Source of the DNA: Patescibacteria group bacterium
GTDB lineage: Bacteria > Patescibacteriota > Minisyncoccia > 2-02-FULL-40-12 > GWA2-44-9
Assembly: GCA_038064515.1 (NCBI GenBank)
Contig: JBBTSY010000005.1
Span: 3,100-48,092, forward strand
Length of the DNA: 44,993 bases
Reading direction: 5' to 3'
Made by a program: the position numbers and the translations under genes. The notes beneath the pieces were generated by a model, which did no database searches, was not told the origin of the DNA, and saw only the letters and a program-made list of their open reading frames with translations. Shown piece by piece: positions 5,831-31,653 of this stretch (positions within the stretch are counted from its first letter, which is position 1; each line of letters opens with the position of its first letter).

Positions 5831-6136
5831 CTATACTTCTGCTTTGCACTTTCGACAAATACGGACCTTGTTATCGCCATTTATTGAAAATCCGATTCTT
5901 GTCGGTTTGCCGCATGCTTTGCATACGATGGCTACGCGGGACATATTAATTAACCGTTCTCGGGAGATGACCTGGCCTTTCTGGCCTTGTTTGCGCCCGC
6001 GAATATGCCGCTTCACCATATTCAAGCCTTCCACCAAAACGGTGTTTTCAGCCGGGACGACTCTGGTAACCTTGCCAGTCTTACCTTTGTCGGGCCCGTT
6101 CAACATCATAATATTGTCGCCTTTATGAATTTTCAT
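5831..6136 (-). CDS. rplX: 50S ribosomal protein L24 with a C-terminal CxxC..CxxC ribbon
   Basis: KOW-type N-terminus (KGDNIMMLNGPDKGKTGKV) and synteny. Confidence 0.93.
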   Translation of the reverse strand: MKIHKGDNIMMLNGPDKGKTGKVTRVVPAENTVLVEGLNMVKRHIRGRKQGQKGQVISRERLINMSRVAIVCKACGKPTRIGFSINGDNKVRICRKCKAEV

Positions 6137-6140
6137 ATGG

Positions 6141-6506
6141 TTAGACTAATTCTTGGGCTAATGAGGCAATCGTCGCAAATCCTTTTTCCTTGATTTCCCG
6201 AGGAATCGGACCGAAGATACGACCGCCTTTTGGCTCTTTACCATCAAGAATTACAACTGCATTGTCATCAAAACGAATATAACTGCCGTCTTTGCGACGG
6301 AATGCTTGGCGCTGACGGACAACCACTGCTTTCAAGACATCTTTTTTCTTAACTGCCTTGCGTGGTTCTGCCACCTTCACCGAGATCACTACAATATCGC
6401 CGATTTGAGCGATTTTGCGTCGAGAACCGCCAAGCACCTTGAAAATACCGACCTTTTTTGCGCCAGAGTTATCTGCAACATTAACAATTGATCGTAGCTG
6501 TAGCAT
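6141..6506 (-). CDS. rplN: 50S ribosomal protein L14
   Basis: [19 protein letters not shown]-terminus and synteny. Confidence 0.96.
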
Positions 6507-6515
6507 GGTTAGATA

Positions 6516-6764
6516 TTAAACTTTAGATTCCACAACCCATTTCTTATCTTTCGAAATAGGCCGAGTTTCGCGAATCACTACTTTATCTCCAATGTGGTAT
6601 TGCTGTTCGGCATCATGGGCTTTGTACTTCGTGCTAACTTTAAATTGTTTTTTATACTTCGGGTGAAGCTTAAGCCGGGTAACCTCAACAACAACAGTTT
6701 TCATCATCTTGTCGGAAACGACGGTTCCCGTAAGCATCTTTCCTTTTAGTATTGGGTTATCCAT
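6516..6764 (-). CDS. rpsQ: 30S ribosomal protein S17
   Basis: S17-like sequence ([19 protein letters not shown]) and synteny. Confidence 0.93.
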
Positions 6765-8584: not shown

Positions 8585-8962
8585 TCATTTTTTAGCTTCA
8601 GTTGCCACGGGAGCTGTCTCGGCCTTGGCGGCTTTCGCGGCATCCAATTCTTTCTGCCGCTGAGCAGCTTCTAGTTCCTTCTGCATGCGACCACCGTGAC
8701 GGGCAAACTTTCTCGTGTGCGAAAATTCGCCCAGTTTATGGCCAACCATATCTTCAGTCACAAAAACCTGGATATGGATCTTGCCATTATGAACGCCGAA
8801 AGTGTACCCTATCATCTCCGGCACAATCGTGCAATTACGCGCCCATGTCTTAATAACGGTTTTGCCTGCCTCGCTAGCAGGCAGGTTGCCCGCTTTTAGC
8901 TTGCCAACTTTTTGAAGCAGTTTTTCGTTGACGTATGGACCTTTTTTAAGACTTCGTGACAT
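8585..8962 (-). CDS. rpsS: 30S ribosomal protein S19 with an internal 7-aa palindrome-encoded insert and a C-terminal extension
   Basis: [11 protein letters not shown]-terminus and GHKLGEF motif. About 6 more residues before IKTW than in E. coli or B. subtilis S19, as I recall them. Confidence 0.95.
8864..8885. repeat. CCTGCCT..AGGCAGG palindrome copy inside rpsS, in frame
   Basis: The sequence gcctgcctcgctagcaggcagg is read on the minus strand as CTG CCT GCT AGC GAG GCA GGC, giving LPASEAG. Confidence 0.75.
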
Positions 8963-8980
8963 ATGATATATTTTTGATAC

Positions 8981-9805
8981 TTATTTAACTCGGCGCCGGA
9001 TAATAAACTTCGATGACTTTTTCTTCTTATTGCGCGTTTTGTGGCCGCCGGTAATCTTACCATGGCGAGTCTTTGGACGACGAGTACCGCGACCTTGACG
9101 GCCTTCACCTCCACCATAAGGATGGTCAACCGGATTCATGGCAGTACCGCGAACTTTCGGGCGGCGGCCGAGCCATCGAGATCGTCCTGCCTTGCCCAGC
9201 GAAATCAAAGCATGTTCAGCATTAGAGACCTGCCCAATCGATGCAAGGCATTCGCCGGAAAGCATTCGAGTTTCAGATGATGGCATTACAAGCTGTACCT
9301 GGCCGGCTTCACTTGCCAATACGGTAGCGCCACTGCCTGCTGAACGAACGATCTTGCCGCCCTGGCCCGGAAACAATTCTACATTATGAATGAGAGTACC
9401 TTGAGGAATATTCTTCAAACGCATGCGGTTGCCAGGCCGAATCGGTCCTTTCTCGAAGGTCATAACCGTATCACCCACTTTAAGTTCCTGCGGAGCAAGA
9501 ATGTAGCGACGATCGCCATCAACGAAATTAATGCGCGCAATGCGGGCCGTACGGTTTGGATCGTATTCGAGAGTAGCTACCTTACCCGGGATATCCATCT
9601 TAAGCTGTTTGAAATCCACAATACGATAGAGACGTTTTACGCCATTGCCTCGGTGCGAGCTGGTAATGCGCCCCTGGTTGTTGCGGCCGACTGATTTATG
9701 AAAACCCTTAATGAGCGGCTTTAAGGAACCACTTTTAGCAAGTTGAGAGAAATCGTATCCTTTAGTATGTCGCCGTGACGGCGTTGTGGGTCGATACTGT
9801 TTCAT
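8981..9805 (-). CDS. rplB: 50S ribosomal protein L2
   Basis: L2-like sequence (GRNNQGRITSSHRGNG, MNPVDHPYGGGEG) and synteny. Confidence 0.97.
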   Translation of the reverse strand: MKQYRPTTPSRRHTKGYDFSQLAKSGSLKPLIKGFHKSVGRNNQGRITSSHRGNGVKRLYRIVDFKQLKMDIPGKVATLEYDPNRTARIARINFVDGDRRYILAPQELKVGDTVMTFEKGPIRPGNRMRLKNIPQGTLIHNVELFPGQGGKIVRSAGSGATVLASEAGQVQLVMPSSETRMLSGECLASIGQVSNAEHALISLGKAGRSRWLGRRPKVRGTAMNPVDHPYGGGEGRQGRGTRRPKTRHGKITGGHKTRNKKKKSSKFIIRRRVK

Positions 9806-12341: not shown

Positions 12342-13550
12342 CTATGCATGAATCTTAGTTACAACACCAGCACCTACAGTCTTGCCGCCCTCTCGAATCG
12401 CAAAGCGCTGTTTTTCTTCCATGGCAATCGGCACAATGAGCTTAACTTTGAGATTGGCAGTATCGCCAGGCATAATCATCTCGGTACCTTCGGGCAATAT
12501 TACTTCACCCGTTACATCCGTGGTTCGGAAGTAGAATTGAGGTTTATAGCCTTTGAAAAATGGGGTATGTCGGCCACCTTCTTCTTTTGTGAGGACGTAA
12601 ATTTCGGCATCGAATTCGGTGTGCGGTGAAGCAGAGCCGGGCTTTGCGAGCACTTGGCCGCGTTCAATGTCTTCTTTCTTTAGGCCGCGAACCAAGATAC
12701 CGGCGTTGTCGCCTGCCATACCCGAGTCGAGTTGCTTGTTAAACATTTCGATGCCCGTAATAACGGTTTTTACCGTTGGACGAATACCGACAAGCTCAAC
12801 TTCATCATTAATTTTAACCTGACCGCGTTCAATACGGCCCGTAACAACGGTACCGCGACCTTCAATTGAGAAGATATCTTCGATCGGCATCAAGAATGGC
12901 AGATCAATTTGGCGATCCGGATTGGGAATGTACGAATCGAGCGTATCTACTAGTTCTTTAACTTTGAGCGCCCATTTATCATCCTTAGAGGTAGCTTCCA
13001 GAGCTTTGAGGCCTGAACCACGGATAATAGGCGTAGTGTCGCCGGGAAATTTGTATTTTGTGAGAATTTCGCGAATTTCAGCTTCGACGAGATCTAACAT
13101 TTCTGGATCGTCAACTTGGTCAACCTTATTAAGAAAGACTACAAGGTAAGGCACGCCAACCTGACGGGCAAGCAAGATGTGTTCGCGAGTTTGAGGCATC
13201 GGACCATCGGAAGCGGCAACAACAATAATAGCGGCATCCATTTGAGCGGCACCGGTGATCATGTTCTTGATGTAGTCAGAGTGACCAGGAGCATCCACGT
13301 GCGCATAATGACGCAGTGGCGTCTCGTACTCGGAGTGATGCAATGAGATCGTGATACCTCGGGCTTTTTCTTCTGGAGCATTGTCGATACCATCGACGCC
13401 TTCTACGCGAGCGCTGTATCCAGCGTCCTTATTCATATCAAGGACGTGTAAAATAGCCGCGGTAAGAGTTGTCTTCCCGTGGTCTACGTGACCGATCGTT
13501 CCCACGTTGAGATGGGGTTTGGATCGATTAAATTTTGTTGCTTCTGCCAT
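12342..13550 (-). CDS. tuf: Elongation factor Tu
   Basis: [14 protein letters not shown] and NKVD GTPase motifs. 402 aa. Confidence 0.98.
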
Positions 13551-13649
13551 GTCTTTTTCGACGAAACGATACGGTCGTTATGAATAATGCGCGAATTCAT
13601 TCGTGTATTATCCATGACGCAGTATCGCCTTTATTTAAACGTAGTGTTC

Positions 13650-13678
13650 ATTTTAACAGACCTCTTGAGGAAAGTCAA
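13650..13678 (-). promoter_or_regulatory. Sigma70-type promoter for tuf
   Basis: On the minus strand TTGACT (13678-13673), a 17-nt spacer, then TAAAAT (13655-13650). Confidence 0.6.
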
Positions 13679-13775
13679 CCATTCCCCCCTGCTACTGATT
13701 CTCCTGGAAACCGCCCTGCCCTGTAGTGAAACTTTTGCTGGCTCTGCCAAGACCATTGGTCATGCAAAAGTTCTA

Positions 13776-14087
13776 CTACGGGGCCTGCTTCTCGTCCTGC
13801 TCAATCTGGTCTTTCAGTGCCTGTATTTCCCGATTTAAGCGTTCCAGCGCTTCTACTTCCTGGGCGCTTAAAGCTGCTCGCACCGGCGCCTCTTCTGAAG
13901 CCTGCGGAACGGGGAAGTTCAGAGCTTCGGCATCGTTAGCCTTCTTTACTTTGACTTCCTGTTCCTTGGCTTGCGTCAGATTGCGGTATACCTGGTAATC
14001 CAGGATCACATACGATGGCTCCCCTTCATCCAAGATCAGAACTGATGTCGAGTTCTTAAGCAGGTCTTTTAATTCTCGAATATCCAC
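13776..14087 (-). CDS. Phd/YefM-like antitoxin-fold N-terminal domain fused to an acidic coiled-coil tail. GTG start.
   Basis: The N-terminus (STSVLILDEGEPSYVILDYQVYRNL) resembles the Phd/YefM pattern. No adjacent toxin gene was recognised. Confidence 0.5.
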   Translation of the reverse strand: MDIRELKDLLKNSTSVLILDEGEPSYVILDYQVYRNLTQAKEQEVKVKKANDAEALNFPVPQASEEAPVRAALSAQEVEALERLNREIQALKDQIEQDEKQAP

Positions 14088-14236
14088 TTCTTACACTCAC
14101 TGACGAGATATGGCTCGCGTTCCGCTTCACAATGTGCTGCGGAGAAGCTAAGTGCAACAGGTCAGGTTTAATCGGTATACAAATCAATTCCTCGCCATTC
14201 ACTCGGAACAACTCGTCTGTGAGTGTGAGGATCCAT
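14088..14236 (-). ncRNA. Copy A of a roughly 130-150-nt structured repeat element (family 2)
   Basis: A 14-bp closing stem joins 14094-14107 and 14212-14225. An inner stem gttccg/cggaac joins 14119-14124 and 14204-14209. It is homologous to 26612-26763, with compensatory changes between the copies. Confidence 0.55.
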
Positions 14237-14260
14237 CCATCAGTTCTACCGTACCGATAT

Positions 14261-14308
14261 AAAAAAGCAAGCCCGCCCAACTTTTGCTTTCGCAAAACTT
14301 AGGCGGGC
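14261..14308 (-). terminator. Rho-independent terminator after ORF 14367..15188
   Basis: On the minus strand GCCCGCC pairs with GGCGGGC around an inner AAGUUUUGC/GCAAAAGUU stem. UUGCUUUUUU follows. Confidence 0.65.
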
Positions 14309-14366
14309 AAGGCTTCGGCAACAGCTGGGAAGCTACTATCGGGGTCACGGCCTAACTGTTCAAAAA

Positions 14367-15188
14367 TCAGCGCAAGAATATTTGACCGGCTTCGTTCCAG
14401 TCAGCCGCCTCTTTGACGGAGCTGGCATTTAAGGACCATTTGCCGGCCCCAGCGACCCACATCGCGATAACAACCCGGAGGTTATTGTCAACATCACGGG
14501 TATAGAACATGTTGGAAAGTCCCGACCCCCTCTCTATCAAGAGGATTCCGGCATTGCCGTGGAGTTGCCTGGAGAGCAACTCCCACAAGTGAACCAGCGA
14601 AATCTCAGCGCGGTTGCCCCGCATATCGAAAGTGTGAGCCTGCAAAGGGCCCCTGGAGAGCTTGTAGGCCTTCAGTGTTTGAGCTGGGACATTCTCCTCG
14701 GCCTTAGTTAGAAACCACTCCTTGAATCTATCAGACATGATTAAGTGATCCTTATTGGCACCGAATGTCTCCTCTGCTGAGAACTTCTCGACTGCCTGGA
14801 CAGATACACTGCCCATTAGCTCAAGATCTACGGGTTCGATATATGCTCTTTCCCTATGAAAGCTCTGATGTTTTTCATCTCCTGTCATCATTTTCTCGGC
14901 TTTCTGTAACTCTTCTGGCGTAGATTGGTCTTTTCCCTTAGTCTCTTGAGAAACATCGTCAATACTGGTCCAATATCCATCGATGTCATCTTGGGGTTCA
15001 TCCACGGCTCCAGGATCATGTTTTTGAGCTTCTTCTCTGGTAGCATACTCACCGATAACTACAGGGGTTTCTGGTCCATTTTTCCAGCGAACGTGCTTTA
15101 TGACTCTAAATCTTGGTTGTTCGACTTCTCCCGCCGATTTTACTTTTTCCTCTTTTTCTATTGGTCTTTTATATTTTTCTTCGGACAT
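14367..15188 (-). CDS. Hypothetical protein, 273 aa. N-terminal module shared with ORF 15278..16438. Unique C-terminal domain.
   Basis: 55 consecutive residues (KHVRWKNGPETPVV...SQETKGK) are identical to the neighbouring ORF. The C-terminal domain was not recognised. Confidence 0.6.
   Translation of the reverse strand: MSEEKYKRPIEKEEKVKSAGEVEQPRFRVIKHVRWKNGPETPVVIGEYATREEAQKHDPGAVDEPQDDIDGYWTSIDDVSQETKGKDQSTPEELQKAEKMMTGDEKHQSFHRERAYIEPVDLELMGSVSVQAVEKFSAEETFGANKDHLIMSDRFKEWFLTKAEENVPAQTLKAYKLSRGPLQAHTFDMRGNRAEISLVHLWELLSRQLHGNAGILLIERGSGLSNMFYTRDVDNNLRVVIAMWVAGAGKWSLNASSVKEAADWNEAGQIFLR
14931..15100. repeat. 170-bp perfect direct repeat, copy 1 (partner at 16184-16353)
   Basis: Compared base by base. 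It encodes the shared N-terminal module of the two paralogs. Confidence 0.9.
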
Positions 15189-15277
15189 GTTTTTGTAAAA
15201 TTAAATTATTAATATCTTAACTCTATGACCACCCGATAGATAAAGTCGATTGCATTTATGTTTAACCCATACTAAAT

Positions 15278-16438
15278 TCACCGAATTATACCTTTTTTTA
15301 CAATTAACTCCACGACATCAAAAACTTGATCTGGCGATAAGCGAGAGCGAGAACCGTCAGCATTTCTAGGAGCACCACCAATAGTAGAGCCTCCTCCCCA
15401 TCCAGGTTCTAATTTATTTAACTCGTGCAAAATCGTGCCTTCTTTCGATACGGGGCCAACCGGAAAATTACTGACTAGCTCTGATTTCTTTGCGATAGTA
15501 TATGCGTAACTACCGTCTGCTTGCTGTTGCATAGCTACAGCCCTCGTATGACCTGCCTTATATATGAGATCGAAGACAAAATCATTTGATTGGGCCATAA
15601 TCCAATTAGTACCTTCTCTTACTACCTCGAAATTGCGAGCAATTTCTTGTTTCGTGTATTTAAAATTGCCGGCCACAAGATCGTCAAGATTCTTTAAGCA
15701 TTGCTCAAGGAGTGTGTTCAGATCGTCTTGACTGTATGTCCGATTTCTCCTTGCATCGCTTTCCGGTTTCATAACTCCTTTATAAAATGCGTCCGCTAGT
15801 TCTGCGTCGAGAGGCTCATAGGCTGGTCCATGAGCGTCGATTCCGCCAACCGACTCAACAAGCATTCTTATCTTCAGACTATGAGCTTCACTTGGGTGAC
15901 GTAGTAACCAGACTGATAAAACGGTATCCCCATCAATATCATTTACATAGACTTTGCTTTTTTCCGGTTCGAACCCTAGAAGCAAAGCATCGAGTACTTG
16001 TTGACATGTAGCACGAGTTATTTGACGATTAACTTTATCATGATGATCAAAGGAGAATCTGTTACGCCCCACATCAAACTCAGGCCCCTGAACATATCCG
16101 TCAAGAGCAACACTGTTCTCGGGCATGTTATCAAACTGTTCTGTTTTACCACGTGCAATGACTAGATCCACCAGACTCTCTCCTTTTCCCTTAGTCTCTT
16201 GAGAAACATCGTCAATACTGGTCCAATATCCATCGATGTCATCTTGGGGTTCATCCACGGCTCCAGGATCATGTTTTTGAGCTTCTTCTCTGGTAGCATA
16301 CTCACCGATAACTACAGGGGTTTCTGGTCCATTTTTCCAGCGAACGTGCTTTACTACCCTGAATTTAGGATGCTCAGCTTCTCTCGTACTAGTTTCCTCT
16401 TTTTTTTCAACGATTGATTCGGGTTTCTCGCTATTCAT
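15278..16438 (-). CDS. Hypothetical protein, 386 aa. Shared N-terminal module plus a C-terminal domain with DHH/DHHA1-like motifs.
   Basis: The motifs FSFDHHD, DIDGDT and GWGGGSTIGGAP recall DHH-family phosphoesterases. Motifs I and II are not evident. Confidence 0.6.
   Translation of the reverse strand: MNSEKPESIVEKKEETSTREAEHPKFRVVKHVRWKNGPETPVVIGEYATREEAQKHDPGAVDEPQDDIDGYWTSIDDVSQETKGKGESLVDLVIARGKTEQFDNMPENSVALDGYVQGPEFDVGRNRFSFDHHDKVNRQITRATCQQVLDALLLGFEPEKSKVYVNDIDGDTVLSVWLLRHPSEAHSLKIRMLVESVGGIDAHGPAYEPLDAELADAFYKGVMKPESDARRNRTYSQDDLNTLLEQCLKNLDDLVAGNFKYTKQEIARNFEVVREGTNWIMAQSNDFVFDLIYKAGHTRAVAMQQQADGSYAYTIAKKSELVSNFPVGPVSKEGTILHELNKLEPGWGGGSTIGGAPRNADGSRSRLSPDQVFDVVELIVKKGIIR
16184..16353. 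repeat. 170-bp perfect direct repeat, copy 2
   Basis: Identical to 14931-15100. Confidence 0.9.
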
Positions 16439-16477
16439 AATTAAAAATTGTTATTAAGGCTGTAGCTTATCTTCGCA

Positions 16478-16509
16478 CTTATATTGTAATCCCCCCCCTG
16501 ATAAGTCAA
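16478..16509 (-). promoter_or_regulatory. Candidate promoter with a G8 homopolymer in the spacer
   Basis: On the minus strand TTGACT (16509-16504), then tatcaGGGGGGGGattacaa, then TATAAG (16483-16478). The spacer to TATAAG is 20 nt. The tract is C8 at 16491-16498 on the plus strand. Confidence 0.4.
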
Positions 16510-16565
16510 CCTAAAAACATAGCCGTTTTGGAGCTCTTTTCTTACAACAAGCGAGCCAATAGTTT

Positions 16566-16738
16566 TGAATCACTCCGGAGTATTTGATGAAATGAGCGAA
16601 AGTGAATAGCCGTAGTGGTGTTTCGAAGAAGGCCGCCCTAGTGGGCGGCCTTCTAGATGGAACGGAGGCGTGAGTGAGCTGAACGAATTTCTAAAATACG
16701 GAGATCGTGATGAAAAAACTATCGGCGAGCGGCTATTT
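16566..16738 (-). ncRNA. Copy E1 of a roughly 175-185-nt structured repeat element (family 3) abutting the fusA stop codon
   Basis: Homologous to 31469-31653. Conserved blocks are interleaved with a fully compensated variable hairpin (16627-16654). A long-range pairing joins 16605-16612 and 16730-16737. Confidence 0.55.
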
Positions 16739-18838
16739 CTTTCCTTCCATAATCTGCGTCGCGATATTGCCTGGAACAGGTTCATAGCGTTCAAACTCCA
16801 TCGTAAACGTACCCCGGCCCTCCGAGAAGGAGCGGATAGTGGTGGCGTATCCGAACATTTCTGAAAGCGGAACGCGCGAGTTAATAATCTTCAAGCCAAG
16901 TATACCTCGATCATCGACGCTCATAATCTGGCCACGGCGCGAGGAAAGATCGCCAGTAGTGGAACCAAGGAAATTGTCTGGAACGATAACTTCGACTTTC
17001 ATGATCGGTTCAAGGATAACCGGCTTGGCGCGCTTGACCGCTTCTTGAAATGCTATTGACCCAGCCACCTTGAAGGCGATTTCGGAAGAATCGACATCGT
17101 GATAAGAGCCATCGTAGACGGTGACTTTAATATCAACAACCGGGAATCCGGCGATAACGCCTTTATCAATGGCTTCACGGACACCTTTTTCAATGGCGGG
17201 GATGAATTCTTGAGGAATTGCGCCACCTTTGACGGCGTTCACAAACTCGAATCCTTCGCCGCGTTCTTTAGGCTCTACTCGCAACCAGCAATGGCCATAC
17301 TGACCGCGACCACCAGACTGCTTGATATATTTGCCCTCTGCCTGGGCTTTTGCGGAAATAGCTTCTTTATAGGCAACCTGCGGGCGACCAACATTTGCCT
17401 CGACGCCGAATTCACGTTTCATGCGCTCAACGAGAATTTCTAAGTGCAATTCACCCATGCCGGCGATGATCATTTCACTGGTCTCCTCATCACTCCGAAT
17501 ACGGAATGTAGGATCTTCATCGGAGAGTTTTTTCAAAGCCATACCCATCTTTTCCTGGTCAGCTTTAGTCTTTGGTTCAATGCGTAAGGAAATAACCGGT
17601 TCTGGAAAGTCGATACCTTCAAGAAGGATCGGATTATCGGGATCGCACAATGTATCCCCCGTTCGGGTATCTTTCAATCCGACTGTGGCGGCGATATTAC
17701 CCGCATAAATTTCTTTTACTTCTTCCCGATCATTGGCATGCATCCGGACAATGCGACTAATACGTTCCTGCTGGCCGCTACGCGTATTGAGGACATAGGA
17801 ACCGGCGGTAATCTTCCCGGAGTACACGCGGAAAAACGTCAAAGCGCCGACATACGGATCAGTCGCGGTTTTAAACGCCAGGGCGGTAAATGGAGCCGAA
17901 TCTTCGGAGGCAATCATTTTCTCTTCACCCGTTTTTTGAACCGTAGCTTTCGCGGGAGGAATATCCAATGGAGACGGGAGGTAGTAGGCCACCGCATCAA
18001 GCACGAGTTGAACGCCTTTATTTTTTAATGCCGAACCGCAAAGCACAGGGAAAATTTTATTTTCAAGCGTTGCCGCGCGAACAATACTTCGCAGACGAGA
18101 AACATCAATTTCTTTTCCCTCAAGGTATTCGGCCATAGCTTGATCGTCTTGCTCGACAATCTTCTCAATCATAGCCGCACGCTCTTTTTTCGCGGCTTCA
18201 ATGAGATGATCAGGAATTTCACCTTTGATGACCTTTTCGCCCTTATCTCCTAAAAACGTAACATATTCCATCGTCATTAGGTCAACGATGCCTTTGAATT
18301 GATCTTCATGACCATCCGGAATTTGAAGTTTCACGGCAAACGGAGAAAGACGTTCAAGGATCGACTGGTAGGAACGCTCAAACGAGGCACCCAAGCGGTC
18401 GAGTTTATTAATAAAGCAGATGCGCGGAACTTTGTAATCGTCCGCATAGCGCCAATTAGTTTCCGATTGAGGTTCCACGCCGGCAACGCCGTCAAACACT
18501 ACCACAGCACCGTCGAGTACGCGCAAAGATCGTTTTACTTCAATAGTAAAGTCGATGTGTCCCGGAGTATCAATGATGTTAAGCTTGACTTTGTCCGCAT
18601 CCTTATCTTTAGCATCGGTCGGGATCCAGTAGGCAGTCGTGGCGGCGGCAGTAATGGTGATACCGCGCTCTCGCTCCTGTTCCATCCAGTCCATAATCGT
18701 ATCGCCTTCGTGAACTTCACCGATTTTGTGAGAAATACCGGTATAAAAAAGAATACGCTCCGATGTCGTCGTTTTGCCTGCATCGATGTGCGCGATAACA
18801 CCGATATTGCGAATTTTTTCAATTGGATAGTCTGCCAT
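16733..18838 (-). CDS. fusA: Elongation factor G
   Basis: 701 aa with AHIDAGKTT and DTPGH motifs and a typical EF-G sequence. Confidence 0.98.
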
Positions 18839-25749: not shown

Positions 25750-26616
25750 TTATTGCTTATTAAGATAATACGAAGTCCCATCACTGATAAGACGAATCAT
25801 TCCATCAGTATCAGTACGATACAGTGTTGCACCGAAATTTTCAAGGCGGGAAAGAATCAGTTCCGCAGGATGCTTGTACCGATTTTTTACTCCTACCTGA
25901 ATTATTGCCGCTTGCGGGGTAACAGCATCGAGGAACGGCAACGCCGTCGAAGTTTTTGATCCATGGTGGCCCACTTTCAATACATCCGCATCGATATCGA
26001 TATTATTATTGACCAAGATGCGTTCCACGGCCGCCTCCATATCACCCGCCAACAGAACTTTTACGTGCTTATATTGAAGCATCGCTACCACGTTGTCATC
26101 GTGAGGCTTATCAGTCGCAGTGCCGAGCACTGATTTCAGAGGATGGATAATCGTAAAAGTCATTTCGGGTCCTAAGTTGATCTGTTTTCCCGCCACAGTA
26201 TCAATTTCGATTGTATGCTCTTGAGCAACCGCTTCCTGCCACGATCGGAATTCTAATGAATCATATTGCTCTCCTGCCTGAATGACATAGCCAACGTCAT
26301 AATGCTTTAATACATCAATTAATCCGGCGATATGATCGCTATGAGGATGGCTAACCACGACCGCATCGATAGACCGATCGTAAAATGGCATCACCCGCGC
26401 CAGCTCCGCAATCACGGCACTGTCCGGTCCGCCATCGACAAGCACCTGGTTGCCATTCGGAGCTTCTATAAAGATGGCGTCTCCCTGGCCGACATTCAAA
26501 AAATATATTTTTAAAAGTCCATCCTTCTGCCCTGCGGCTTGTGAACTTGAAAACGCCAGCACGATGAGTACCAGGGCGATGATTCCCGCAATTATTTTAT
26601 CTCTATTCGTATCCAT
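25750..26616 (-). CDS. Membrane-anchored metallo-beta-lactamase-fold protein (ComEC C-terminal domain homolog)
   Basis: HPHSDHIAG motif. I chose the start at MDTNRDKII (ATG at 26616), followed by a TM helix. The upstream part of the tracked ORF is the family-2 repeat element. Confidence 0.8.
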   Translation of the reverse strand: MDTNRDKIIAGIIALVLIVLAFSSSQAAGQKDGLLKIYFLNVGQGDAIFIEAPNGNQVLVDGGPDSAVIAELARVMPFYDRSIDAVVVSHPHSDHIAGLIDVLKHYDVGYVIQAGEQYDSLEFRSWQEAVAQEHTIEIDTVAGKQINLGPEMTFTIIHPLKSVLGTATDKPHDDNVVAMLQYKHVKVLLAGDMEAAVERILVNNNIDIDADVLKVGHHGSKTSTALPFLDAVTPQAAIIQVGVKNRYKHPAELILSRLENFGATLYRTDTDGMIRLISDGTSYYLNKQ

Positions 26617-26763
26617 CCTTACACTCATTGACGAGATATGGCTCGCGTTCCGTCTCACATAGTGGTGCGGAAAAGCTTTGCCATACAGATCAGCATTATG
26701 ATGATTCAAACAAATCCTCGCCATTCACTCGGAACAACTCATCAATGAGTGTCAGGATCCATG
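26612..26763 (-). ncRNA. Copy B of the family-2 structured repeat element, wedged between the two comEC-derived ORFs
   Basis: A closing stem joins 26622-26635 and 26738-26751. An inner stem joins 26647-26652 and 26730-26735. The comEC stop codon (26752-26754) abuts the stem. Confidence 0.55.
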
Positions 26764-28314
26764 ATGCCGATAGAACCACCAAATTCCTCCGATCAGCAGT
26801 ACATAAGCGAGAACGATTATAATCCACGGCAATGAGATCGAAACAGAGGCAAATGAGAATGATGCCGCATGTTCAACGATCCAGAGCTGATATCGCGCTA
26901 ATGCCCACGCCACTACGCCGATAATCTTTCCCAGCGGAATCCAGATCATGCCGCTTATGCCCGCTATGAAACCAAACAGCATTACTGCGGGGACAATCGG
27001 TAGGATTAAAATATTTACCACCAAAGAAACCAGCGAGAAAGAATGAAAATACCCCACTAAAAGCAGGATAACCATCACCTGTGCCGAAAGCGTCATAAGA
27101 GCAATTTCTTTTAATCCCGTCAATGAAGGAGCTCGCTGTGCCCAACGCTGAAATATCGGATACAAATATAAAAGACCGATAACCGCCAAAAAAGAAAGCT
27201 GAAAACCAATATCAAACACGAGGATGAATGGATTAAAGAAAACCATCAGCGCACCGGCCAGAATAATGCCATTTTTCGCATCATAGAGACGGCCGTATCC
27301 GGAGGCGAAAAGGACTAATAGTCCCATTACCGCCGCTCGCACCACTGACGCCGAAGCTCCCGTCAGCAACGTAAAAAGAATAATGGCCGCCGTGGCGATC
27401 CAAATTGCTCTGCGTCGCCGGAACCAAAACAATAATACCCCCAGCACCGCCTCGGCGACGATGGTGATGTTGTATCCGGATATCGCCAAAATATGACTAG
27501 TCCCCGTCGTAGCAAAGGCATCTTGGAGACGCTCTGGGATCGCGCTACGCGAACCCAGAAGCACTCCTTGGATATAGGCGGCCTCCGGCTCTGCTATCGT
27601 GCCTATGAGCGCTGACTCGAAACGCGATTTTAATCCCTGCAGAGCGCGATACACGACAACACTGCTCCGCTCCCAAAGACCCAAGGATATTGATCCCTCC
27701 GCCAGAATATCGGGAGAAGAAAAAATGCTTCGAATACCTTGTTTTTTCAGATACGTCGCATAATCAAATGATTCGGAATTTTTAGGAGCTTGCGGCGCGC
27801 CTTCGATGGTAAGGATATCGCCATAACGATACCCCGCTCTATTATCAGCGGTCACAAGAACCCGTTCTCCTGCCGAGAAAGTTCTTTTGAGCGCGATGAT
27901 TTCTTTTACTTCAAAAGGAAACTGCGATTGTAATCCCCGTTCCCGAACATCTCCTGCCACATATCCCACCACACGCACAGAAATGCCCTTGCCTCCCGCC
28001 TCTCGATCGTTAAACTGCGTGACACGGCTGTGATCAGCGTCGAATTGCTGAAACCGGTAGATACCCCCCGTTGCAAGGATGATGCAAAATCCGATAACAA
28101 AGCCTACCTTCCGGCGCTTAATACCTGCGACTGTTTGTCCGAATGTGCGATGATAGGCTGATACTCCAAAAAATAAAGTCCCCAGCCCGATAAAAATCCA
28201 AAAATATTGTTCACCAAAATGCCAGAATGATCCGATAAGCGTTCCAACCAGAAAAGCGATCAGAAAATACGAGAGAACTTGAGACTTGTGCATACCTGTA
28301 TCGTACCTGATCAA
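26752..28314 (-). CDS. comEC: ComEC/Rec2-type competence channel protein (DUF4131 plus competence domains, lacking the MBL domain)
   Basis: 520-aa polytopic membrane protein with the typical ComEC sequence (GTSHILAISGYNITIV). Confidence 0.85.
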   Translation of the reverse strand: MIRYDTGMHKSQVLSYFLIAFLVGTLIGSFWHFGEQYFWIFIGLGTLFFGVSAYHRTFGQTVAGIKRRKVGFVIGFCIILATGGIYRFQQFDADHSRVTQFNDREAGGKGISVRVVGYVAGDVRERGLQSQFPFEVKEIIALKRTFSAGERVLVTADNRAGYRYGDILTIEGAPQAPKNSESFDYATYLKKQGIRSIFSSPDILAEGSISLGLWERSSVVVYRALQGLKSRFESALIGTIAEPEAAYIQGVLLGSRSAIPERLQDAFATTGTSHILAISGYNITIVAEAVLGVLLFWFRRRRAIWIATAAIILFTLLTGASASVVRAAVMGLLVLFASGYGRLYDAKNGIILAGALMVFFNPFILVFDIGFQLSFLAVIGLLYLYPIFQRWAQRAPSLTGLKEIALMTLSAQVMVILLLVGYFHSFSLVSLVVNILILPIVPAVMLFGFIAGISGMIWIPLGKIIGVVAWALARYQLWIVEHAASFSFASVSISLPWIIIVLAYVLLIGGIWWFYRHHGS

Positions 28315-31203: not shown

Positions 31204-31468
31204 GTGGGGCGCGAAGGAGAAGAGGAAAGAGATGCGCCGCTCGTGCGAATCTCTTTACCCTCCTGCTTATTTAAACAATCCGTTGGTAGATGAATTTAAC
31301 CATCTTTTGACCGTGCCCACAATGTTGATAACCCTCCGTTCGGCATTTCCTCCGAATTTATGCGCCCCCGCTGACCATTTCAGCTCGCTTCACTCCTCCT
31401 AAGCGAGCGTGCGCTTTGAGAAATCCTCGCCGAAAAGGAGCGAAGCAAGCCAGCGAGCTCCCGTCTTC

Positions 31469-31653
31469 TGAATCACTTCGCGAGGTATTTGATGAAATAA
31501 GCGAAGTCGAATAGCCGAAGTGGTGCTTCGACGTAAAGAAGCTTCCTTATGGAAGCTTCTTTACTAGGTGGAACGGAGGTGTAGATGAGACGAGCGAACC
31601 TTTCCAAATACCGAGGCAGTTGTGATGAAAAAGATGGTAGCGAGCGGCTATTT
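31469..31653 (-). ncRNA. Copy E2 of the family-3 structured repeat element abutting the ftsZ stop codon
   Basis: See copy E1. The variable hairpin is 31533-31564. The long-range pairing joins 31510-31517 and 31645-31652. Confidence 0.55.

Follow-up and report, generated by a model that had tools for sequence, protein, structure and literature searches.

A 2026 preprint reports that DHH phosphodiesterases are common among the viruses of all domains and have been exchanged recurrently with cells, and that both viral and cellular members can degrade cyclic GMP-AMP (cGAMP) and other immune nucleotide messengers (bioRxiv 10.64898/2026.07.21.739742). NrnA-type DHH enzymes are housekeeping nanoRNases (review, PMC9779919). 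Here, we describe a locus at which a predicted relative of these enzymes lies within the str gene cluster of a Patescibacteria group bacterium of the Candidate Phyla Radiation (CPR; GenBank assembly GCA_038064515.1, contig JBBTSY010000005.1, positions 3,100 to 48,092). The whole 44,993-nucleotide (nt) stretch of DNA that was analyzed is called the window, and coordinates refer to it unless a relative is named. Between its fusA gene, encoding elongation factor G (EF-G), and its tuf gene, encoding elongation factor Tu (EF-Tu), lie three open reading frames (ORFs), which we name p386, p273, and p103 after their lengths in amino acids (aa). The comparisons below make it probable that p386 and p273 are a strain-variable cargo at a hot spot bounded by the stop codon of fusA on one side and the fusA terminator on the other, with p386 most likely a phosphoesterase, and that the locus is not a toxin-antitoxin system. 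The literature that was searched held nothing specific on fusA-tuf insertions in CPR bacteria or on hot spots of this kind.

The fusA-tuf junction in the window and its relatives

In agreement with the initial annotation, fusA and tuf lie 3,182 nt apart in the window, with the three ORFs between them, all on the minus strand (Table 1). The gene order around the site (an M50 peptidase gene, rpsL, rpsG, and fusA, then tuf, rpsJ, rplC, and onward) is matched in relatives. One close relative, locus L155, is 93 to 97% identical to the window across rpsL, rpsG, fusA, tuf, rpsJ, and rplC (94% for fusA and 93% for tuf at the nucleotide level). In L155, fusA is followed after 81 nt by a p103 homologue and then by tuf; p386 and p273 are absent, and about 36 nt stand in the place of some 2.45 kb. 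Homology between the two sequences ends seven bases past the fusA stop codon (16726) and restarts at the tract GGGCTTGCTTTTTT; the restart point, GGGCTTGCTTTTTTATA (about 14274), belongs to the fusA terminator, of which it contains the T-tract and the 3' half. Because homology breaks and resumes at these points, we place the true strain-specific insertion between them, so that it parts the stop codon of fusA from the terminator T-tract. Within the insertion are a leader element and a promoter-like site, the genes p386 and p273, and one half (5') of the terminator hairpin. The initial annotation had taken all three genes for a single accessory island; this stands for p386 and p273 but not for p103, which sits at the same place in L155 without the other two. 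The tuf promoter is also present there, with identical hexamers and spacing (7478-7506 of L155). Both p103 and the promoter are therefore ancestral, and the promoter is not an addition that restored tuf transcription, as had been supposed.

Two more distant relatives, L157 and L158, have fusA genes 76 to 79% identical to that of the window at the nucleotide level (77% for L157), and the homologous fusA genes of all three relatives bear the EF-G Pfam domains. The order in L157 is that of L155: fusA, a p103 homologue, and tuf. L158, whose contig stops before tuf, carries a different cargo of 1.8 kb within the same two conserved boundary sequences. The two ORFs of this cargo match nothing in Pfam and do not resemble the genes of the window, and after the cargo comes the closest match to p103 by score (73% aa identity). 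Since unrelated cargo is found at the same boundaries, the site is a hot spot.

We then considered the junction more broadly by scanning metagenome contigs with the EF-G of the window; 80 loci were kept (62 to 81% identity). Among the 45 loci that had both genes, the fusA-tuf distance ranged from 66 to 5,070 nt: it was 450 nt or less in 25 loci, 560 to 1,000 nt in 8, and more than 1 kb in 12. Eight further loci continued for 4 to 7 kb 3' of fusA with no tuf gene. The genes between fusA and tuf were diverse and included rplM-rpsI, a response regulator, a DUF5667 protein, and many hypothetical proteins. With a distance of at least 560 nt in 20 of the 45 loci, the order rpsL-rpsG-fusA-tuf is not, in this group, the near-invariant arrangement from which the initial annotation had started. 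In three loci (L096, L101, and L109), fusA is followed by rplM-rpsI and not by tuf, and the str cluster is therefore rearranged in part of the group. Unusually long fusA matches in the metagenome loci, which at first resembled insertions inside fusA, turned out to be fusA and tuf merged in one match. Taken together, these data show that the str cluster is a site of variable cargo even in small CPR genomes, where the conserved gene order is no given.

Three contigs carry the exact p273 sequence, and five carry the p103 cluster, which has two member sequences (≥90% identity); the locus is therefore not an assembly one-off. A 171-nt exact repeat shared by p386 and p273 could mislead a short-read assembler on the pairing of their 5' and 3' parts; the 5' ends of the two genes are distinct from each other, and both genes encode the module described below. 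Taxonomic placement throughout follows the way in which the closest homologues are labeled (Paceibacterota, Campbellbacteria, and Yanofskybacteria).

The cargo proteins and the resident protein p103

Residues 1 to 86 of p386 form an orphan module (16181-16438), and residues from about 90 to 386 form a predicted DHH/DHHA1-fold domain. A search of 5.8 billion proteins returned 581 homologues, with coverage limited to residues from about 90 to 386; these proteins are mostly 290 to 320 aa long, labeled "hypothetical," and without a Pfam domain, and p386 itself matched no Pfam family at E ≤ 1. Across 38 family sequences the invariants were A-L-D113-G, S-x-D131-H-H133, N166-D-x-D-x-D171, D201-x-x-G-P, G346-W-G-G349, and R358. 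All of these residues are retained in p386, including D113, D131-H132-H133, D167, D169, D171, and D201. The AlphaFold2 model of p386 had a predicted local distance difference test (pLDDT) score above 90 over residues 90 to 386, and the top 28 matches in a Foldseek search of the PDB were all DHH/DHHA1 proteins (E = 6e-4 to 5e-2; probability up to 0.99). These neighbors included the phosphodiesterase TM1595, Borrelia DhhP, an archaeal 3'-phosphoadenosine 5'-phosphate (pAp) phosphatase, GdpP, Rv2837c, NrnA, NrN, archaeal RecJ, and an uncharacterized Helicobacter pylori protein (6mtz). Searches of PDB sequences with the single sequence and with the family profile gave nothing useful. The DHH/DHHA1-like motifs first read in the 386-aa protein are thus invariant across its family, and the predicted fold matches that of DHH/DHHA1 enzymes.

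Homologues of p386 were present at 70 genome loci, which belong to several CPR groups, Sericytochromatia, Frankia, Myxococcales/Polyangiales, a number of Gammaproteobacteria, and others. Across these loci, no neighboring gene was conserved across phyla, and conservation was confined to single clades. In the closest CPR relatives, the p386 homologue follows uvrA-uvrC (a Paceibacterota metagenome-assembled genome [MAG]) or lies 3' of infB-rbfA (a Campbellbacteria MAG). A TrmB-like regulator located 2 to 6 kb away in seven CPR loci was considered as a partner of the family and set aside as too loosely associated to inform. A Cas_csx3 match near the homologue in L001 was weak and 2.3 kb off. Members of the family also occur on five IMG/VR viral contigs (L162 to L166; 131 to 308 kb; G+C content of 27 to 63%), and on at least three of these the gene lies amid compact arrays of small ORFs.

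The same module begins p386 and p273, and their C-terminal domains differ, as the initial annotation had stated (79% aa identity over 89 aa for the module). At the DNA level, the two genes share a 204-nt direct repeat of 95% identity. Its core is a tract of 171 identical nt that stops exactly at the joint between module and C-terminal domain; to either side of this tract, the sequences have diverged or are unalignable. Because the core is identical while its flanks have diverged, the comparison points to recent gene conversion or recombination, which would have placed the module before two unrelated domains. No homologue of the module was found in either protein collection (5.8 billion proteins and 1.84 billion representatives) or in the fetched loci. 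An apparent match in L021, beginning at p386 residue 30, was rejected because the alignment ran through stop codons. In the models of both proteins, the module is a β-hairpin with a short helix (pLDDT, 62 to 80) followed by an acidic disordered linker; on inspection its sequence proved to be charged and to lack a hydrophobic segment, and it has no signal peptide.

In p273, the module (residues 1 to 86) is followed by a private linker and by a C-terminal domain at residues from about 120 to 273 (14367-14831). A word-indexed protein search with p273 returned only p273 itself. HMMER, run against the 1.84 billion representatives, matched 746 proteins (128 at E ≤ 1e-10), over residues from about 90 to 273 only. 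Members of this family are typically 200 to 230 aa long, with a variable N terminus and a conserved 150-aa domain at the C terminus. Tandem copies of the domain within single proteins were also observed, five in one and two in another (P0122 and P0123). Neither the single sequence nor the family profile of the domain matched Pfam or a PDB sequence. The C-terminal domain was modeled with pLDDT above 90, and comparison with the PDB and a viral structure library gave no significant structural neighbor; the best, nonsignificant neighbors were the RelE-type toxins HigB2 and RelE (probability ≤ 0.25; E ≥ 0.37), a resemblance that may serve as a lead only. Genomic context showed no consistent pattern across four loci with a member of the family: Paceibacterota contig L001, L109 (in tandem 3' of fusA-rplM-rpsI, 8602-9695), Yanofskybacteria MAG L159 (inside a type IV pilus cluster, 6001-6759), and the non-CPR-looking contig L160 (near a Fic gene).

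Homologues of p103 numbered 26 (46 to 82% identity), which together with p103 itself make a family of 27 proteins. They lie directly 3' of fusA in at least 10 related loci, and in L155 and L157 they have fusA and tuf as their immediate neighbors; a hidden Markov model (HMM) of the family also identified ORFs directly 3' of fusA in L076, L082, L087, L088, L093, L100, and L135. Given this synteny, p103 is a clade-specific gene that resides in the fusA-tuf spacer. Because nothing but fusA and tuf adjoins its homologues in L155 and L157, p103 is not an antitoxin or immunity partner of the cargo. No toxin gene adjoined a p103 homologue in any relative, and in the window p103 is separated from the upstream p273 by a terminator and a transposon-like element. 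The description of this third protein as Phd/YefM-like is borne out by weak but consistent matches. The PhdYeFM profile matched 24 of the 27 family members, with a best E value of 2.4e-5 and all scores below the Pfam threshold; p103 itself matched PF02604 with E = 0.008 and 16.3 bits, below the gathering cutoff of 29.8. The protein is small and acidic, with 45 N-terminal residues resembling Phd/YefM and a conserved amphipathic helix at the C terminus; a family-profile search of PDB sequences found no Phd/YefM structure. The 3' end of p103 in the window has been altered by a palindromic insertion of 69 nt (Table 1), which replaces the last seven codons and supplies the present stop codon. The encoded C terminus is ...EKQAP-stop in the window versus ...EKQGGFQENQ-stop in L155, and the 3' end that the gene once had can still be read downstream, with its stop codon (13696-13719).

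Promoter-like sites, terminator, and small repeats

A predicted promoter-like site lies 45 nt 5' of the p386 start codon (Table 1). A G8 tract (16491-16498) is located inside its 15-nt spacer. The initial annotation had proposed this site with its G8 tract, and both can be read from the letters; the consensus promoter scan, which demands a spacer of 16 to 18 nt, left it unreported. One or two extra G residues would give an optimal spacer, making the G8 tract a candidate slipped-strand switch. At tuf, the scan agreed with the earlier description of a near-consensus promoter. Promoter-like and terminator-like sites in the region are no more numerous than in shuffled sequence. The strong terminator reported after p273 is present as a nested hairpin with a T-tract. 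It ends in T6, and the T-tract and downstream sequence derive from the terminator region that fusA had ancestrally; L155 and L158 both retain the stretch CTTGCTTTTTTATA.CGGT.CGGTA.

Table 1. Features of the fusA-tuf region of the window
Feature	Position	Strand	Basis
fusA (EF-G, 701 aa), left flank	16733-18838	-	ORF
Family-3 repeated element, ~175 nt, starting on the fusA TAG stop codon	16563-16735	-	Second copy in window
Strain-specific insertion, ~2.45 kb	about 14275-16725	-	L155 comparison
Promoter-like site TTGACT-15-TACAAT	16483-16509 (TTGACT 16509-16504, TACAAT 16488-16483)	-	Read from sequence
p386 (386 aa)	15278-16438	-	ORF
171-nt tract, 100% identical core of the module	14930-15100 versus 16183-16353	-	Repeat comparison
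p273 (273 aa)	14367-15188	-	ORF
Terminator, nested hairpin GCCCGCC...GGCGGGC then CTTGCTTTTTT	14261-14313	-	Fold energy, -39 kcal/mol
MITE-like family-2 element, 146 nt (~143-nt body), at the p103 start codon	14082-14236	-	Second copy; empty site
p103 (103 aa), small resident gene	13776-14087	-	ORF
Palindromic insertion, 69 nt, GCAGG duplication	13716-13784	-	Inverted repeat I1; L155 comparison
tuf promoter TTGACT-17-TAAAAT, TG extension, 10/12	13650-13678	-	Consensus scan
tuf (EF-Tu, 402 aa), right flank	12342-13550	-	ORF

Both structured elements named in the initial annotation have a second copy in the window. The family-3 element on the fusA stop codon contains a perfect 11-bp hairpin (16628-16653), and its second copy starts on the TAG stop codon of ftsZ (about 31465-31650; 74% identity over 186 aligned columns). 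Both copies open with TAGCCGCTCGC. The stems of their central hairpins are wholly different in sequence, yet perfect in both.

The family-2 element has the hallmarks of a miniature inverted-repeat transposable element (MITE). It is bounded by 15-nt terminal inverted repeats (TIRs; ACACTCAC[A/T]GA[C/T]GAG), which differ at matching positions between the two copies, and by a flanking duplication, ATGGAT/[A/G]TGGAT (ATGGAT/GTGGAT at p103). It occurs in more than one copy (the second at 26611-26762, with 81% identity), and the empty site is found in L155 as AACAGGATGGATATTCGAG. Both copies fold as a long hairpin (-49 and -52 kcal/mol), and both lie exactly on a start codon (ATG GAT) in the orientation of the gene, one at p103 and the other at a gene with a metallo-beta-lactamase (MBL) domain. 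After insertion exactly at this point, the start codon of p103 is now GTG. No partner transposase for family-2 was seen in the window, and two copies only were seen. Around the second copy, ComEC is encoded as two ORFs, one with DUF4131 and Competence domains (26752-28314) and the other with the MBL domain (25750-26616). An in-frame intervening sequence in ComEC (intron or bypass) was considered and rejected, as removal of family-2 leaves a 14-nt overlap of the ORFs and no fusion of frames. Because the ORFs overlap as separate genes without family-2, a simple insertion at the start codon fits this copy better.

Rfam searches at gathering and permissive thresholds assigned no family to the repeated elements, and none of the family-2, family-3, and 69-nt elements was found in the fetched relatives. 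In L155, which has no p386 or p273, the p103-tuf spacer carries an insertion of its own of about 89 nt (7387-7475 of L155). Small insertions therefore turn over fast in the region.

Competing explanations and known systems

In the reading that we regard as probable, the ancestral layout, as the comparison with relatives shows, is fusA, a short spacer with a terminator, the Phd/YefM-like p103, the tuf promoter, and tuf. In the window, a 2.45-kb segment with two genes has entered this layout just 3' of the fusA stop codon and ahead of the terminator T-tract. Transcription of this cargo would start at its own weak promoter-like site or read through from fusA, and it would end at the old terminator. 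Both proteins look cytoplasmic, and the common, genome-specific 86-aa module before their different domains would bring p386 and p273 to the same partner or place. By analogy with NrnA, GdpP, and CnpB, p386 would most likely be an Mn2+-dependent phosphoesterase acting on short oligonucleotides or nucleotide second messengers, and its family appears to move horizontally between distant bacteria and large phages. The cargo would be an accessory, strain-variable trait, with p103 outside it.

Several observations weigh against this reading. No integrase, transposase, recombinase, or attachment site (att)-like repeat is present that would explain how the cargo arrived; most simply, the cargo would have passed from one related strain to another and been integrated by homologous recombination in the conserved flanks. 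The exact p386 sequence had no self-match in the collection of 5.8 billion proteins, unlike p273 and p103; the gene may have been called differently, or may be different, in the source assemblies. With respect to the fold, the Foldseek template modeling (TM) scores of p386 were low (0.16 to 0.36), as would be expected of a modeled structure whose lobe orientation or topology differs, and none of the 38 family members matched Pfam DHH (PF01368) or DHHA1 (PF02272) at E ≤ 10. Finally, canonical DHH motifs run in the order DxD, D, DHH, and D, with GGGH in DHHA1. In the alignment with p386, the order is D113, DHH131-133, DxDxD167-171, and D201, and the glycine motif, GWGGGS, has no His. The motif order of p386 thus appears to differ from the canonical one, and both catalysis and substrate are predictions. 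Judged from sequence and model, the p386 family is a divergent, possibly permuted DHH/DHHA1-fold family.

The two genes could instead be cargo of biological conflict, an anti-phage defense or signal-quenching module at a hot spot resembling a defense island, in which the DHH-fold enzyme degrades cyclic or linear nucleotides that serve as immune messengers and the G8 tract switches expression by strand slippage. We consider this unlikely, although several findings are consistent with it. Cargo at the site differs among relatives, the DHH-like family is patchy across phyla and present on the five large viral contigs among small phage-like ORFs, and the structural neighbors include GdpP, CnpB/Rv2837c, and NrN, which degrades S-adenosylmethionine-AMP (SAM-AMP). 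Viral and bacterial DHH phosphodiesterases degrade cGAMP and other messengers (bioRxiv 10.64898/2026.07.21.739742), and the spacer with the G8 tract would reach 16 to 17 nt with one or two added G residues. However, PADLOC assigned no family to p386, p273, or p103 at E ≤ 1; the window has no cyclase, sensor, or effector in the vicinity, nor do other genomes show a conserved one beside the family. The Cas_csx3 match near the L001 homologue is weak and distant, and no variation in G-tract length was observed. A role linked to translation appears improbable. In that case, the module would direct both proteins to the translation apparatus or to linked nucleotides, for instance, in a turnover of nanoRNA or pAp that is coupled to the expression of EF-G and EF-Tu; this would be why the cargo stayed at the site, and p103 would regulate the tuf promoter. 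Such a role would agree with the orientation of the cargo, which reads with fusA and lies before the fusA terminator, making read-through from the EF-G gene possible. It would also agree with the NrnA-type housekeeping nanoRNases among the neighbors of p386 and with the position of p103 beside the tuf promoter, which is kept across the clade. Nevertheless, other CPR genomes have their DHH-like homologues at unrelated places (3' of uvrC or close to rbfA), the close relative L155 does without the cargo, and diverse unrelated genes fill the same gap in other genomes.

The initial annotation had likened the locus to a polymorphic effector/immunity or toxin-antitoxin system, with a conserved N-terminal module, swapped C-terminal domains, and an antitoxin-fold protein. 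In such a system, the module would deliver C-terminal toxin domains, and p103 would be the antidote. Some features speak for this view: p386 and p273 adjoin each other and carry the same module before unrelated C-terminal domains, p103 is weakly like Phd/YefM, and the best, nonsignificant neighbors of the p273 domain are HigB2 and RelE. We nevertheless hold it to be very improbable. The p103 gene is syntenic between fusA and tuf in relatives without both cargo genes; the module has no signal peptide, known trafficking domain, or homologue; and no small immunity-like ORF follows p386 or p273. The DHH-like and p273 domains usually stand alone, and the N termini of the p273 family are variable, which is the reverse of the polymorphic-toxin pattern. 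Searches of Pfam, NCBIfam, PADLOC, and PHROGs identified no toxin, immunity, secretion, or defense family. The initial annotation had also stated that its island would be in doubt if the proteins were housekeeping families that keep this position throughout the clade or if the three genes never occurred together outside this genome; p103 does hold this position through the clade, and the trio was found together nowhere else in the searched loci, which puts that island partly in doubt. A bolder version of the strain-variable cargo would make the module a new adaptor, shuffled by recombination before a divergent, possibly permuted DHH-fold nuclease or phosphodiesterase and before a second enzyme, with a common target and G8-switched expression, in sum a new two-effector accessory cassette that an episymbiotic CPR bacterium carries within its translation-factor operon; to this we give little credence.

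As a strain-variable cargo, the island itself is an ordinary insertion, and the interest lies in the DHH-like family, the orphan module, and p103. Three protein families at this locus are unannotated: a DHH/DHHA1-fold family found across distant bacteria and large phages, the family of the 150-aa p273 domain, with about 750 clusters, and the family of the Phd/YefM-like gene whose fixed place is between fusA and tuf. Should the p386 family degrade nucleotide messengers, it would be a widespread addition to the enzymes of phage-host conflict.

Among described systems, the stand-alone DHH/DHHA1 phosphodiesterases (NrnA, TM1595, Rv2837c/CnpB-CdnP, the catalytic domain of GdpP, Borrelia DhhP, and NrN) are the only significant structural neighbors of p386, with a two-lobe fold. 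Like these enzymes, p386 has a DHH triad, several Asp residues that do not vary, and, in its second lobe, a GGG motif, and its family is about 300 aa long and occurs in cells and phages. In contrast to them, p386 has no Pfam DHH/DHHA1 match, its motif order appears to differ (D...DHH...DxDxD...D rather than DxD...D...DHH...D), and the His of GGGH is absent; unlike other members of its own family, it is fused to the orphan 86-aa module. The p103 protein resembles Phd/YefM type II antitoxins in being small and acidic with a helical C-terminal tail and in its weak PF02604 matches. It differs from them in its subthreshold scores, in the absence of an adjoining toxin gene in relatives, and in a position that is fixed across the clade rather than patchy or mobile. 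As in polymorphic toxin cassettes, p386 and p273 share their N-terminal part, differ C-terminally, and have a sharp recombination joint, but trafficking domains, immunity genes, orphan C-terminal cassettes, and recognized toxin domains are absent from the pair. The family-2 element is like a MITE in its TIRs, 5- to 6-nt flanking duplication, two copies, and empty site in L155, and unlike one in that both copies lie in the ATGGAT start-codon context in the orientation of the gene, with no partner transposase in the window. As a whole, the insertion departs from usual genomic islets in its location within the str cluster between a stop codon and a terminator, in having no integrase or recombinase, and in comprising two genes only, and it agrees with core-gene-flanked integration hot spots in its identical boundaries, with different or no cargo in related genomes, and in cargo families that are patchy and horizontally transferred.

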